From: Asterionella formosa
Lineage: Eukaryota
NCBI GenBank assembly: GCA_002256025.1
Contig: NKIB01013918.1
Location: 1-49,913 of the forward strand
Reading direction: 5' to 3'
DNA length: 49,913 bases
The notes under the pieces are model-generated. The model was not told the DNA's origin and searched no databases. It worked only from the letters and a program-made list of their open reading frames with translations. Shown here piece by piece: positions 3,291 through 9,221 of the stretch (its first letter is position 1; the number at the start of each line of letters is the position of its first letter). The position numbers were made by a program, and so were the translations under genes.

Positions 3291-3729
3291 TTGTCAAATA
3301 CACCTACCACCGGTATCTCGTACAGTGTCATGATACACCGATGACCGATGACCGATGTACCCTGGTACCTGGTACCTGGTACCAGCAACAGATAGGAGTA
3401 CCTGCTACACCACGAGGTACCAGGGTACCAGGTTCCTTGTACCAGCAACAGATAGCCTGCTGTCATGTACGAGTACTGCCCTAGTATAAGATTTAAATAA
3501 TTCACAGGTCTGCTTCTTAAAAAATATCATGCCTCTTAGCACAAAGCAAGGATATATACCGGTATATATCAGGTATTTCCTTTTTTTATGCTATTCATGT
3601 ATGCATAAGATAGTCCTTAGCAATAGCGACACTACTGCTGTTGCTTCTCATAGAAAAAGGTTCTTCTACTGTGGACAAGGAGGGGTTCACTCTATATGGC
3701 AATCACCGATGCACATTTAAGGTTGTACC

Positions 3730-5043
3730 ATGAGCGCAGCTCATAGGTCACTCGCTCGTCTACCTCTTGAAGTCTTTGCTGATCTCTCGCTTGATCATAA
3801 AGATGCTGCTGGTCTACGAGCAGAATGTTGTCTGAAGCTGAAACAGGCTAATCTTGGCCTACAAGTGCGAGGTGTCACGTTGGTGGGTCCGTTCTGTCAG
3901 CTCTCCTCCCCCACTCTTGTACGCATTTTGGATCCTCTCCTAACATTTGAAGAATGCGAAGAAATGAAGCGACGGGTATATCTCAATTGTGCACCAAAAC
4001 CAATGAGCGCTCTGTCCCTACTCGGTGCCACTTCAGATTCGTGCGAAAAGGCAGACTCGGAGAACCTCTTGAGGCATGTTTCAACGGGTATGCCATCGCT
4101 CGACCTGTGCTTGCGGGGAGGATTTCGCGTCGGTACCATATCTGAGATTGTTGGACGTGCTGGTACAGGAAAATCCCAGCTTGCGATGCAACTCTGCGTG
4201 GTTGCTGCTAGTTTCAATCAAGGAACAGTCTTTATAGATACAGAAAGAAAATTGAGCCTTCGAAGATTGTATGAGATTGCTGAAGCCAGGGTGGTCGCTA
4301 ATGCAGAAAGTGCACGGCATTCCATAGATATTGACGTTGGTGACGATTTCATGTACGATGTCGTAAATGACAACCAGACTATCGAGTCAGTTCAAGCTCC
4401 ACTCGATTCAAAATATCAATATAAGGCTTCCAGAGTGGTTTTGGAGAATACTTCAGTGCATTCTCCAGGCTCTACAATCGAACTCTTATCTGTCATCGAC
4501 GGAATTGAAGAGGAAATCTTGCATCGAAACCAAGAAGCACAGGAATCAGTGTCGAAATTTCCAGTTCGCCTTATTGTCCTTGACAGCATTGCTGCTCCGG
4601 CTCGACGCGACTTTGGGTCCGAATCGGCTCCTCAGAGAGTTTCGGCGGTGATGAAGGCTGCGCAGACTCTCAAACGCCTCGCTGACCAGCTGCAGTGTGC
4701 AGTTGTGGTTATCAACCAAGTTGGTTTAGATGATGGTGGTGGTGAGAGCTCCGATCGGGCTGAAGGGAGTGACTATGTTGCGGTTCGCGCCGCACTTGGA
4801 ACATCATGGCATCACTGCCTAACCACTCGTCTTTTGATGGAACATGAACGTGACCCGCACCGACTTAACAATACGAGTGACAATGCCCATACCAGCGATG
4901 TTCCTCTCGGGGTTGACCACGCTTTGCAGTTCAACCGAGGACATGTCCGCCGTGCGACTGTTGTGAAAAGCAATGTTGCAGGACTAGGGAATATGAACTA
5001 CGAAATCGCAAATATGGGAGTGGTTGAAATGCGAGATAATTGA
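3730..5043 (+). CDS. RAD51B: RAD51 paralog (RecA/Rad51 ATPase), most similar to RAD51B
   Basis: 437-aa single-exon ORF with 'STGMPSLDLCLRGG', Walker A 'GRAGTGKS', 'FIDTE', Walker B 'LIVLDSIAA..RRDF', 'VVVINQV' and 'AALGTSWHHCLTTRL'. The exact paralog is less certain than the family. Confidence 0.85.
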   Translation: MSAAHRSLARLPLEVFADLSLDHKDAAGLRAECCLKLKQANLGLQVRGVTLVGPFCQLSSPTLVRILDPLLTFEECEEMKRRVYLNCAPKPMSALSLLGATSDSCEKADSENLLRHVSTGMPSLDLCLRGGFRVGTISEIVGRAGTGKSQLAMQLCVVAASFNQGTVFIDTERKLSLRRLYEIAEARVVANAESARHSIDIDVGDDFMYDVVNDNQTIESVQAPLDSKYQYKASRVVLENTSVHSPGSTIELLSVIDGIEEEILHRNQEAQESVSKFPVRLIVLDSIAAPARRDFGSESAPQRVSAVMKAAQTLKRLADQLQCAVVVINQVGLDDGGGESSDRAEGSDYVAVRAALGTSWHHCLTTRLLMEHERDPHRLNNTSDNAHTSDVPLGVDHALQFNRGHVRRATVVKSNVAGLGNMNYEIANMGVVEMRDN

Positions 5044-5951: not shown

Positions 5952-6449
5952 ATGCAACTTTCCAGAAAGCTTACCCCGAACGCACTTCGATTCTACCATC
6001 GCCCCATGCTAGCCTCCTTTGATGATTTCTGGGGACCATTCAACAATGTTCCCGACTTCACGCATCCGAATTTAACCCTCCATCGCACTCCACAAAACTA
6101 TCATGTTACAGAGGACGACAAGGAGTTCAAACTTGCTTTCGACGTTCCAGGGGTCAAGGCTGATAATATCAAGATTGAACTCAAAGATGATGGAAGGGTT
6201 CTCCACTTAAGCGGAGGCCGCACCGTTCAAACGGAAAACGAGTTCTCCGAGATTAAGTTCAGCAAGTCCTTCACACTTGGTAGCAACATTGACTCATCCC
6301 ACCTCACGGCCAGTCTTGCGGATGGCGTTTTGACAGTTTCCGCTCCAAAGAAGAAGGAGGTTGTTCAGAAAATCAGCATTACTGTTGGTGACAGTGCTGC
6401 CGATAAGGAGATGATCGATGTTGCCCGTCCTGAAGAGAAGAAGGAATAG
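5952..6449 (+). CDS. HSP20: Small heat shock protein (HSP20/alpha-crystallin domain)
   Basis: 'FDVPGVKADNIKIEL', 'FSKSFTL', 'ASLADGVLTVSAPK'. An alternative start at 6006 is possible. Confidence 0.92.
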   Translation: MQLSRKLTPNALRFYHRPMLASFDDFWGPFNNVPDFTHPNLTLHRTPQNYHVTEDDKEFKLAFDVPGVKADNIKIELKDDGRVLHLSGGRTVQTENEFSEIKFSKSFTLGSNIDSSHLTASLADGVLTVSAPKKKEVVQKISITVGDSAADKEMIDVARPEEKKE

Positions 6450-6643
6450 GAGGGCAAGTTGAAGCAAAAGTAAGAGCATGCGTGCTACTTAGGACCTGCA
6501 GATTAGGATGCATCGAAAGCAAACAAAGAATGATGAGACCCTATGAAAACGGGAAATAGATTTGAATAAATATGGAATAGGTAACAAAAAATTTAATTAT
6601 AGGCCAAGAAGTATTCATGCTGCCCAGACTCCACCCTGCCACT

Positions 6644-8833
6644 TTAGGTGACAACCTCTAGAGTCAACCAAAGAAATAAACCACAGGCTAGAAACAATTC
6701 CTGGCAACCAAAAAGGAAGAAGAACAGTGACAAATAGATGCAAAACTTCAAAAGCATATATTGGGACCGATGTTGGTTATCTTTCGCGACTTCCGTGGCA
6801 GCCAGCTTTCGTTGGAGTTTTTGCACCCTGCCGACTAAGTTCACGTTCTTAAAGACAAGCTGTCGAATACACAAGCGGGCGCTTTCAACGTCATGAACGA
6901 GGGATTCGATCAGATCTTCGGCATTTTCCAGACGGGAATGCAGAAATACAGTTCTTCGATTTAACTCCTCATTGATCTGAGTACGCGAATTGAATTCTTC
7001 GATGTCTTTGGTAGAGGGGCTTTCCATCATTATGACCACTTCACTAGGAGGACCATGAGAAATACCCACTGCCGCCAAATGGTCTGGGTGCTCCGATCTC
7101 TTCCCAAGTGTGACCCGGCGGAACTTTCCTGTGTCCAGCTTAAACGTGGAGGTCGACTGTTCATCAAAGCGATGTAGAATTGGTGAACAATTGTGATAGG
7201 TTCCTTTCGCAAGACTCATATTTGCTTTGACATGATCTATTTGCGAATCATGTCGAAAACGTGATTCGTCACGCCTGAATGTCGTTGATGCTTGGCTACT
7301 GTCTTCTCCGGTTTTCTTTGTGTGGTTTGTGTGCGTCACGTACTGAGTAGCGTTCTCAAATTTCGGTAGTTCCCCCTCCCCAAATATCATTTCCTTGATC
7401 TTCTTGAGTTCATCGCGAGCTTCAACCAAATCGTTCTCGGCAGAAATCTCTCGTTCCTTCATGGCCCCCAATACATTTCTGGTTTCTATTAGTTCGCCCT
7501 GCAATTTTCGAATCATTGCAGTATCGTCAATGACTTCATTTACTGTAGCCTCGGTCTGTACCAACTTGGCTCGAGAAGCAAACCGCAACGTAGACCTAGT
7601 TTCTTCGATGAAAAGCTCAGATGGACTAACGCAGCAAAGAATGGCCATCAATGCATTGCCAGACAATTGAGGCTGAAGGAGGCGAGTAAGTTTCGAATCA
7701 CGGAAGTTGATGAAAGCAGGCCTCTTCTTGGGAGGAAGACTCAAAGCTTGAATCACCTGAGACAAGGACAAAAGTGATTGATTAATGTTTCCACTTTCTC
7801 GCTGCAAGCTTGAACTTGTTTTCGTAAGCTTTCCGTTCTTTCCATTTTCAGACCCTGCCAAATCCACTAAGTTTAGATTGGACACACGAACAACTTGAGC
7901 ACACATTCCCTCTGCCTCGGCTTTCTCACGGCTCTCTATTTTAATTCGAAACATGGAGTGTGATCGCGATGATCGCTCGTTCAGCTGGGTTGCTGCCGTG
8001 GCTCTGTTCTTATTTCCAAGATGTAATAGCTCCAACAAGGCAACAGAATTCTCTACAACAGCCTCTTTGGCATCAACCCAAACCCCCATTTTGGGATCTT
8101 CTCGTACGGGCAATTCATTGCAATTTCCAAGCAAGTCTCGCACGCGTTCATTGTAAAGTTCAATGAAACTGACACGAACCGAGAAGTCACGGGAACTGCC
8201 TTGGATCCACTGAAACAAATCAACGCCCGCCATTTGAACAATTCCGGTAGCTTCCTCAACATTCTGATCATTTCCTTGCATAGTGTAGGTCTTGCCTGAA
8301 CCTGTTTGTCCGTAGCAAAATACTGTGCCATGTCTGCCTCGAAAGGATTCCTTTACGATGGGTCTAACCAACGTTTCATATACTTGTGATGTCGTCTTAT
8401 CCTCGCCAAAGATTTTATCAAAGGTATAGACAGATTTGCTTTCAAACTTGCGCACGTGCGATTGCATAATCATATCAGTGTTGCCATTTGATTTAATGGT
8501 CCAGACTAAAGGATCCATCTCGACAGCACTTGAGGGTGACTTCTTCCGAAACGCGACATTTCGAGCATGATTTGATGAACGCAATCTTGCTTCCTGTTCA
8601 TTGAGGGGTCGGATTCGAATAGCCACTGTTTCGTGTTAAAGCGGAGAAAGTGTGTTAGCTCGATTGTCATCATCAGCAACAAAAGGAAAAGTGTGCGGAA
8701 GTGTTCATCATCAGATCTCACCTTTCGTATGCTGGTCTGCGTTAGCCCCCTGCGAATCTTCCGATGACATCGAATTATGGGTTATGGTGGTCGGCAGATC
8801 AGCAGAACAATGGACATTTTTCGCAGGATCCAT
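6644..8833 (-). CDS. Kinesin motor protein, kinesin-7/CENP-E-like, with C-terminal hydrophobic tail; exons 8833-8722 and 8625-6644
   Basis: P-loop GQTGSGKT, switch I NERSSRSH, switch II DLAGSE, 'FRDSKLTRLLQPQLSGN', 'ETRSTLRFASRAK' and coiled coils. Intron 8721-8626 (GTGAGA...ACAG, 96 nt) restores MDPAK...DQHTK-VAIRIRP in frame. Confidence 0.9.
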
Positions 8834-9221
8834 CGAGTAGGGAACAGTCTCAAAGCTGCGATGGCGTCGTTCCTTTGATCATTGGGTGTACTACCGGTAG
8901 TTGAGTACCGGTACCAGTATGGTACCAGATAATACCGGGTAATACCGGGTAATACATACACATCTCACTCATTTAAAAAATATTAACAAGATACCGGTTA
9001 CCATCCGGAGGCACAGCAGCACAGCACCACCAAATACATCACGGTAGTAGGAGCGTGGCGCTACGCCATGCATACCGGTAGGTAAGCCTCATCATTACCG
9101 GTAGGCAGCCCCATCATACCCGGATATAAACCATAAAAAGAGGTTCTTCTTTATATATGGTTGAAACAGATAAAGTAAAACAAATCTTGTTTGTATCTCC
9201 AAAATCAGCCCAGTCATGACC

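Follow-up and report, generated by a model that had tools for sequence, protein, structure and literature searches.

The stretch of DNA analysed here (the window) comprises 49,913 nucleotides (nt) of the genome of the diatom Asterionella formosa (contig NKIB01013918.1). Among its genes is one for a kinesin, on the minus strand at 8833..6644, whose product ends in two adjacent hydrophobic segments and is probably anchored by them directly in a membrane. An earlier sequence-only reading of this DNA had drawn attention to the gene without stating its strand. The gene consists of two exons and a single 96-nt intron. Exon 1 (8722..8833, minus strand) extends from an ATG at 8833-8831, or alternatively from one at 8770-8768, to the first base of a split valine codon. 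The intron (8626..8721, minus strand) has GT..AG boundaries, seen as CT..AC on the plus strand at the RNA joint in contigs from two runs (X1 and X6). Exon 2 (6644..8625, minus strand) includes the TAA stop codon at 6646..6644. The product has 697 residues if translation begins at ATG 8833, or 675 if it begins at the in-frame ATG 8770, in keeping with the estimate of ~700 made from the sequence alone. A near-identical database protein (P0002) is also 697 residues long and differs at one position; its N-terminus, MDPAKN...QHTK joined to VAIRIRPLN, is that predicted by the splice, and together with the RNA joint it defines exon 1. Measured from stop to stop, the open reading frame (ORF) covers 8635..6644 of the minus strand. 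Residue numbers below refer to a 659-residue translation starting at 8623 (P0001), which opens AIRIRPLN and closes ...SQYMLLKFCIYLSLFFFLFGCQELFLACGLFLWLTLEVVT. Its last 38 residues, Y622-T659, form the hydrophobic tail, encoded at 6760..6647 (minus strand).

The transcript was followed in contigs of four RNA runs aligned to 6300-8950. A 3043-nt contig from X1 skips 8626-8721 and then continues from 8625 to 6300 with no further joint; the intron having been removed, this contig therefore comes from processed RNA. X6, a polyA library, displays the same intron joint, and a separate X6 contig is unbroken over 6616-7045. In X7, coverage is unbroken over 6648-8113, and one contig (record 10) retains the intron. 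RNA contigs from two studies, then, remove the 5′ intron yet read through the tail unspliced, and no joint other than that at 8626-8721 was found within the gene in the aligned contigs. This bears on a caveat of the sequence-only reading, that a pyrimidine tract followed by CAG in the tail DNA looks like a splice acceptor. Acceptor-like sequence is indeed present, at ~6701, but the RNA contigs read continuously through the tail. The suspected acceptor is accordingly not in use and the tail is translated as read, being neither spliced out nor frameshifted in the mRNA. Two specific introns were considered and rejected, RNA showing no joint at either: an in-frame intron of 126 nt beginning at GTGCAA (~6827) and ending with CAG (~6701), and one from the donor GAG/GTTGTC to the acceptor-like ...ttttcatag (~6541).

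The protein begins with a complete kinesin motor, as had been supposed. Pfam PF00225 matches residues 3-354 (7562..8617, minus strand; E 1.9e-94) over positions 1-326 of the 327 in the profile, and the translation contains GQTGSGKT, SSRSH and DLAGSE, which we take to be the P-loop, switch I and switch II motifs of the kinesin superfamily. The best solved relative of the motor is human CENP-E (1t5c; 222.6 bits, E 1e-64), followed by KIF11 (201.7 bits); the 60 best solved matches listed include no kinesin-13. The source databases label relatives ‘centromeric protein E’, and by these best matches and labels the motor may belong to kinesin-7 (CENP-E-like). The very long stalk and kinetochore-binding C-terminus of CENP-E orthologues are lacking, and the part of this 697-residue protein beyond the motor amounts to ~300 residues, in which a disordered linker separates two helices and a hydrophobic tail forms the end.

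The features of this post-motor part are as follows. The neck and first long helix occupy residues 367-414 (7382..7525, minus strand), with a mean identity to the query of 0.35 over residues 355-425. A linker of low predicted confidence (residues 417-542; 6998..7375, minus strand; pLDDT, the per-residue model confidence, below 50) comes next and is poorly conserved (mean identity 0.16 over residues 426-520). Within it lies a conserved island, the box GPPSEVVI at residues 524-531 (7031..7054, minus strand; consensus PPxEVxI), in which P525 is kept in 19/28 aligned sequences, P526 in 18/28, E528 in 26/28, V529 in 25/28 and I531 in 18/27; it could be a docking motif. The second coiled coil, residues 546-620 (6764..6988, minus strand), has a mean identity of 0.38 over residues 556-610, and in the dimer model described below it is parallel and in register. 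The tail itself has three parts. Hydrophobic arm 1, Y622-F638 (6710..6760, minus strand), contains a conserved lysine, K626 (20/28). It is followed by a polar turn, G639-C-Q-E642 (6698..6709, minus strand), in which glycine is kept at 639 in 21/28 sequences and position 642 is glutamate or aspartate in 27/28. Hydrophobic arm 2, L643-V658 (6650..6697, minus strand), carries conserved F650 (24/28), W652 (26/28), L653 (26/28), L655 and E656 (21/28, with glutamine in 5 others).

On the Kyte–Doolittle scale, the 19-residue maximum in the tail (621-658) is 2.03, and this is the sole stretch of P0001 above 1.6. Apart from the tail, neither P0001 nor P0002 has a hydrophobic segment on this scale, and neither has a signal-like one at the N-terminus. 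With Pfam at E up to 0.1, the tail is left uncovered: the protein matches only Kinesin, Microtub_bd and, below threshold, AAA_16, and no reticulon-homology or other described hairpin domain profile matches. A features search of the ESM Atlas with residues 540-659 returned nothing at or above 0.9, the top score being 0.86.

The tail is conserved in relatives, and to a degree that chance does not account for. A search with residues 360-659 found nine proteins among 2178 candidates, and the tail module is kept in all nine, at 32-100% identity. For a wider view, an exhaustive phmmer search returned 51,040 kinesins, from which the best 150 representatives were kept, and hidden Markov models (HMMs) of the coiled coil and of the tail were built from family alignment A2. 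Run over 214 proteins, these models detect the preceding coiled coil in 78, of which 74 match the tail model as well; 28 of the matching proteins had served as input to the models. The four that lack a tail match are a truncated model (P0160), a protein with a divergent, sub-threshold tail (P0039), and P0022 and P0202, to which we return. The 74 tail matches invariably lie 0-11 residues from the C-terminus. Of the best 150 kinesin representatives, 20 bear the tail, and tail-bearing proteins make up 33 distinct clusters at 90% identity. The tail matches the motor in conservation, with mean identities to the query of 0.51 and 0.53, respectively, whereas residues 611-620 reach 0.19; arm 2 is the most conserved part (0.55). 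The tail consensus is QYxLLKxSxYxxLFFFxFGxxELFLAxVxFLWLSLExxT, and a second subgroup has ...GWYFxxCIxLYAFGxxDLFxxSxIxFWLSxQ.... Orthologues thus retain the hydrophobic tail, as the sequence-only reading required of them.

The taxonomic range of the tail rests on five named members, from Fragilaria crotonensis, Licmophora paradoxa, Cylindrotheca closterium, Grammatophora oceanica and an Entomoneis/Amphiprora strain. All five are pennate diatoms (Bacillariophyta) of the class Fragilariophyceae or Bacillariophyceae, and two are transcriptome proteins, among them the Grammatophora oceanica orthologue (P0007). Orthologous DNA was sought in two Joint Genome Institute (JGI) metagenome contig scans, one with profile A3 and one with the 140-residue C-terminus, and neither yielded a relative. 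Hydrophobic C-termini also occur in other CENP-E-like kinesins. Eleven of the 150 best representatives (P0013, P0040, P0056, P0081, P0083, P0106, P0107, P0109, P0112, P0129 and P0136) have a 19-residue Kyte–Doolittle mean above 1.5 within their last 50 residues, and no match to the diatom tail HMM. Several of these resemble single tail anchors, and some may be gene-model artefacts; intrinsic anchors may be recurrent in protist kinesins.

Structure prediction is in accord with this division of the protein. In the AlphaFold2 model, which was built on a 28-sequence alignment and has a mean pLDDT of 74.9, the motor is followed by a helix at 367-414, a low-confidence region at 417-542, a continuous helix at 546-637, a break at 638-640 and a helix at 641-658, with a pLDDT of 83-86 in the tail. 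The two long helices fit the two coiled-coil regions proposed earlier, and the tail has the form of helix–turn–helix. From the continuity of helix 546-637 it follows that, in the model, the second coiled coil leads directly into arm 1, and that arm 2 folds back after a turn of three residues. A homodimer model of residues 545-659 scores 0.38 on the interface measure ipSAE; the best of three controls scores 0.00. The mark used for this measure was reached by 21/30 proteins solved as one-chain pairs and by 0/23 solved as single chains, and by 17/29 and 0/30, respectively, when eukaryotes were taken. At least 96% of contacts are shared between the runs, and the pLDDT of the partner is 81. The contacts are in register (593-593, 575-575), have heptad-like spacing and extend into arm 1 (624-639). 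This supports homodimerization through the second coiled coil, although it does not show it, and the score may reflect a generic coiled coil, which can reach the mark by resembling solved structures. There is a hint, too, of pairing within the tail. K626 and E656, which would be adjacent in a hairpin, change together: among 34 cluster representatives, 25 have a basic and an acidic residue at these positions, seven have neither and two are mixed, a pattern that reflects few independent events in few subgroups.

A tail that is present in the mRNA, retained by orthologues, sufficiently hydrophobic for a membrane segment and predicted to form helix–turn–helix is therefore best read as belonging to a directly anchored motor. 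We consider it probable, with appreciable room for doubt, that the C-terminus of this N-terminal, CENP-E-like motor is an integral membrane hairpin. The motor and neck would be followed by a floppy linker and then by the second coiled coil, which would dimerize the protein in parallel and pass unbroken into the hydrophobic helix Y622-F638; a polar turn (G-x-x-E/D) would follow, and a second hydrophobic helix, L643-V658, would return. The last 38 residues would thereby form a membrane-embedded helical hairpin with both ends in the cytosol, and the dimer would be held in the membrane by two such hairpins. The hairpin lies at the extreme C-terminus and is the last part to leave the ribosome, and so its insertion would be post-translational, like that of tail-anchored proteins. 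The endoplasmic reticulum (ER) of diatoms passes without interruption into the outer nuclear envelope and into the chloroplast ER, and the default destination would be one of these ER-derived membranes. The tail has an acidic or neutral end, not a basic one, and by the way tail anchors are sorted this points to the ER and away from mitochondria and peroxisomes. An ER-derived membrane is the most likely target; the sequence-only reading had proposed nuclear envelope/ER, plastid ER or silica deposition vesicle. There, a pair of motors on a short stalk would pull or hold the membrane on microtubules with no adaptor in between. Movement would probably be plus-end directed, by the general rule for kinesins with N-terminal motors.

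Several considerations weigh against this interpretation. The X1 contig, spliced though it is, also bridges the convergent HSP20 gene and so merges two transcripts. P0022 and P0202 share the conserved coiled coil before the tail and yet stop at ...MPSERIGI, with no hydrophobic tail; they may represent soluble isoforms that lack it, retained introns, or truncated or incomplete models. A profile of 24 tails retrieved 16 proteins at E up to 0.01, 15 of them with PF00225 and the other a 197-residue C-terminal fragment, and a profile of the last 140 residues retrieved 18, all with PF00225. These matches suggest only weakly that the module is specific to kinesins, because both searches scored only 8000 candidates, those sharing most words. 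The conservation of the tail is residue specific, beyond what a plain anchor needs, and the tail may do something more than anchor, or something else. Hydrophobicity scales and a structure model, the basis for insertion here, fall short of proving it. Finally, the purely apolar runs are short, 12 residues separating K626 from G639 and 13 separating E642 from E656, and a full crossing of the membrane requires that flanking residues be counted (16-17 per arm). Arms of this length fit thin ER-type membranes; they also fit an element that enters the membrane from one side only.

That last alternative is a monotopic wedge, in which the arms would dip into the cytosolic leaflet alone, as in reticulons and lipid-droplet proteins, and would target the motor to curved ER tubules or lipid droplets. 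Reticulon-type hairpins are about 31 residues in size, the length of the unit from K626 to E656, and the predicted helix–turn–helix and the strictly apolar runs of 12-13 residues suit a wedge as well. We nevertheless think it unlikely. The turn is acidic in 27/28 sequences, with histidine, arginine or glutamine in addition in one subgroup, and would be costly to bury in the core of the bilayer; its unfailingly polar character speaks for a turn extending to the opposite face of the membrane. The confinement of Pfam matches, at E up to 0.1, to kinesin-domain families gives the wedge no help either.

A KASH-like single pass is less probable still, and we regard it as quite improbable. Arm 1 would cross the outer nuclear membrane, and arm 2 with its ...WLxLEVVT end would lie in the perinuclear space and bind SUN, making the protein an adaptor-free kinesin of the LINC kind (linking nucleoskeleton to cytoskeleton). 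KASH proteins end in PPPX in animals and fungi, or in VPT-type motifs in plants, at a fixed luminal C-terminus. The relatives of the diatom protein have no such motif: they end LEVVT, LETYTA, LEALTECKLI, LQSLNHSNDEDEA and others, with no prolines, and the C-terminus is not fixed, 0-11 residues, often charged, coming after the module. Arm 2 is ~90% apolar, unlike luminal KASH peptides, and a three-residue break followed by a further helix is predicted. On the other side stand the conservation of arm 2, the highest of any part; the threonine that terminates many members; and the case of Dictyostelium Kif9, which has been proposed, not shown, to pair with Sun1, in the part of that account available (PMC11816917).

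It is very improbable, in our judgement, that the tail is no membrane element at all, and that its two hydrophobic helices pack instead into a protein core, whether by bundling as four helices within the dimer or by offering a partner a place to dock. In favour are the high residue-specific conservation and the dimer model, which extends the coiled-coil interface into arm 1. Arm 2, though, is missing from the confident contacts of that model, and the arms are almost uniformly apolar rather than amphipathic, with the Kyte–Doolittle maximum over 19 residues given above. That the tail is an annotation artefact, intronic or 3′-untranslated sequence read through by chance, has next to no probability, for although ...ttcttcttcctttttggttgccag at ~6701 resembles an acceptor, the X1 contig with its 5′ intron spliced and the polyA library X6 both cross 6644-6770 unspliced, and relatives with as little as 32% identity, transcriptome-derived proteins among them, conserve the tail peptide.

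The directly anchored motor has one described counterpart among known kinesins. Kinesins are the textbook case of motors brought to membranes by adaptors or lipid-binding domains, and the sequence-only reading contrasted the diatom protein with them. Its proposal of direct anchoring agrees with the mRNA, the orthologues, the hydrophobicity and the predicted helix–turn–helix, but the arrangement is not unprecedented. Kif9 of Dictyostelium discoideum (Tikhonenko et al. 2013) has a C-terminal transmembrane domain in the nuclear envelope, according to the portions available of three papers (PMC11816917, PMC12539209, PMC4284225). In the first of these, a review of the nuclear envelope of Dictyostelium, it is a kinesin-13 with an internal motor, and its transmembrane domain, of ~23 residues, is called ‘a rather unique feature’; the domain tethers the protein to the nuclear envelope, and when it is lost centrosomes become detached (PMC11816917). 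Kif9 is a putative depolymerase. It is counted among the microtubule-linked KASH-type proteins (PMC4284225, from the text available). Kif9 and the diatom protein are alike in carrying their own C-terminal membrane anchor, free of adaptors. They differ in that Kif9 has an internal kinesin-13 motor and a single transmembrane domain, whereas the diatom protein has an N-terminal CENP-E-like motor (residues 3-354) and a two-armed anchor. The diatom family shares the anchoring principle of Kif9, then, and differs from it in motor class, motor position and anchor design; we see no sign of common descent of the two anchors, Kif9 being known here by description and not by sequence. In the literature as seen in part, Kif9 is the single described precedent that we found for direct anchoring of a kinesin, and an intrinsic anchor seems to be rare. 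Literature searches brought up no report of a membrane-anchored diatom kinesin; the supplements of PMC1434745, which lay outside their scope, may list predicted transmembrane kinesins in other protists. That survey of the kinesins of photosynthetic eukaryotes (Richardson et al. 2006) attaches a ‘TM’ domain label to some kinesins of other species; its Thalassiosira pseudonana rows, as far as they were seen, have no TM, and the models there are described as short, poor and truncated.

Two other systems invite comparison. Tail-anchored membrane proteins, clients of the GET/TRC40 pathway such as SNAREs and cytochrome b5, have a cytosolic N-terminal domain, no signal peptide and an anchor at the extreme C-terminus. 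The diatom kinesin resembles them in all of this, its only hydrophobic stretch being residues 621-658 of 659 and its N-terminus being free of a signal sequence. The classical members, however, have one transmembrane helix, and the diatom tail has two arms, broken at 638-640 by a conserved, acidic polar turn of 3-4 residues, and is conserved residue by residue. The KASH proteins nesprin-4, UNC-83 and Klarsicht recruit kinesin-1, as reported in the part available of PMC4284225. Those bridges couple a membrane, the outer nuclear envelope, to a plus-end motor, and the diatom protein, if anchored as we propose, would likewise couple a membrane to such a motor. In the former, motor and anchor are separate, and the anchor binds SUN through a luminal motif; in the diatom they are a single chain, with no KASH motif.

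The kinesin gene lies in company with others. An HSP20/alpha-crystallin gene (5952-6449, plus strand; PF00011, E 1.5e-18) is convergent with it, the two stop codons being 194 nt apart, and the RNA contigs of the two sides meet or overlap at ~6616-6646. An intronless ORF of ~437 residues (3730-5040, plus strand) contains a Rad51/RecA-type ATPase domain (PF08423, E 2.3e-20, in two matched stretches, the better at residues 116-189), and may be a Rad51 paralogue. Upstream of the kinesin, at 8931-8955, the minus-strand sequence ACCCGGTATT occurs twice, and contigs of X1 and X7 depart from the window sequence at 8945 and 8935 and continue with sequence situated ~10 nt beyond. Such a jump would fit those samples having one copy fewer of the 10-nt tandem duplicate, if not certainly so, the aligned stretch having ended at 8950. 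The window is also rich in the palindromic octamer TACCGGTA, of which it has 14 copies against 0.26 expected, a number reached in 0/100 shuffles; ACCGGT occurs 23 times against 5.3 expected. Four of the octamers (8892-9103) are clustered just upstream of the 5′ end of the kinesin gene. Of the remaining copies, those at 3557 and 5252 lie, respectively, upstream of the Rad51-like ORF and between that ORF and the HSP20 gene; the others are at 516, 18803, 25126, 27915, 34188, 39780, 45262 and 46531. The octamer could be a promoter or cis-regulatory motif.

A conserved family of anchored motors would give diatom biology a simple, tractable genetic handle on how the nucleus, plastid-ER or silica deposition vesicle is held or moved along microtubules, and on a second question, what a motor gains or loses by being fixed in a fluid bilayer. 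The compact, conserved hairpin of 38 residues may also serve as a targeting tag for diatom cell biology. A bolder and more detailed version of the hairpin anchor, doubtful at present, is that the hairpin does more than anchor passively. It would work within the membrane as a sequence-specific module, in which the dimer brings four helices together as a unit, K626 and E656 form a clasp and the acidic turn is invariant, and it would fix a plus-end motor permanently in the continuum of outer nuclear envelope and chloroplast ER of pennate diatoms. Were this so, these cells would position nucleus, plastids or silica deposition machinery along microtubules without adaptors, by a functional counterpart of the KASH–kinesin bridges that would have evolved independently of the Dictyostelium case.

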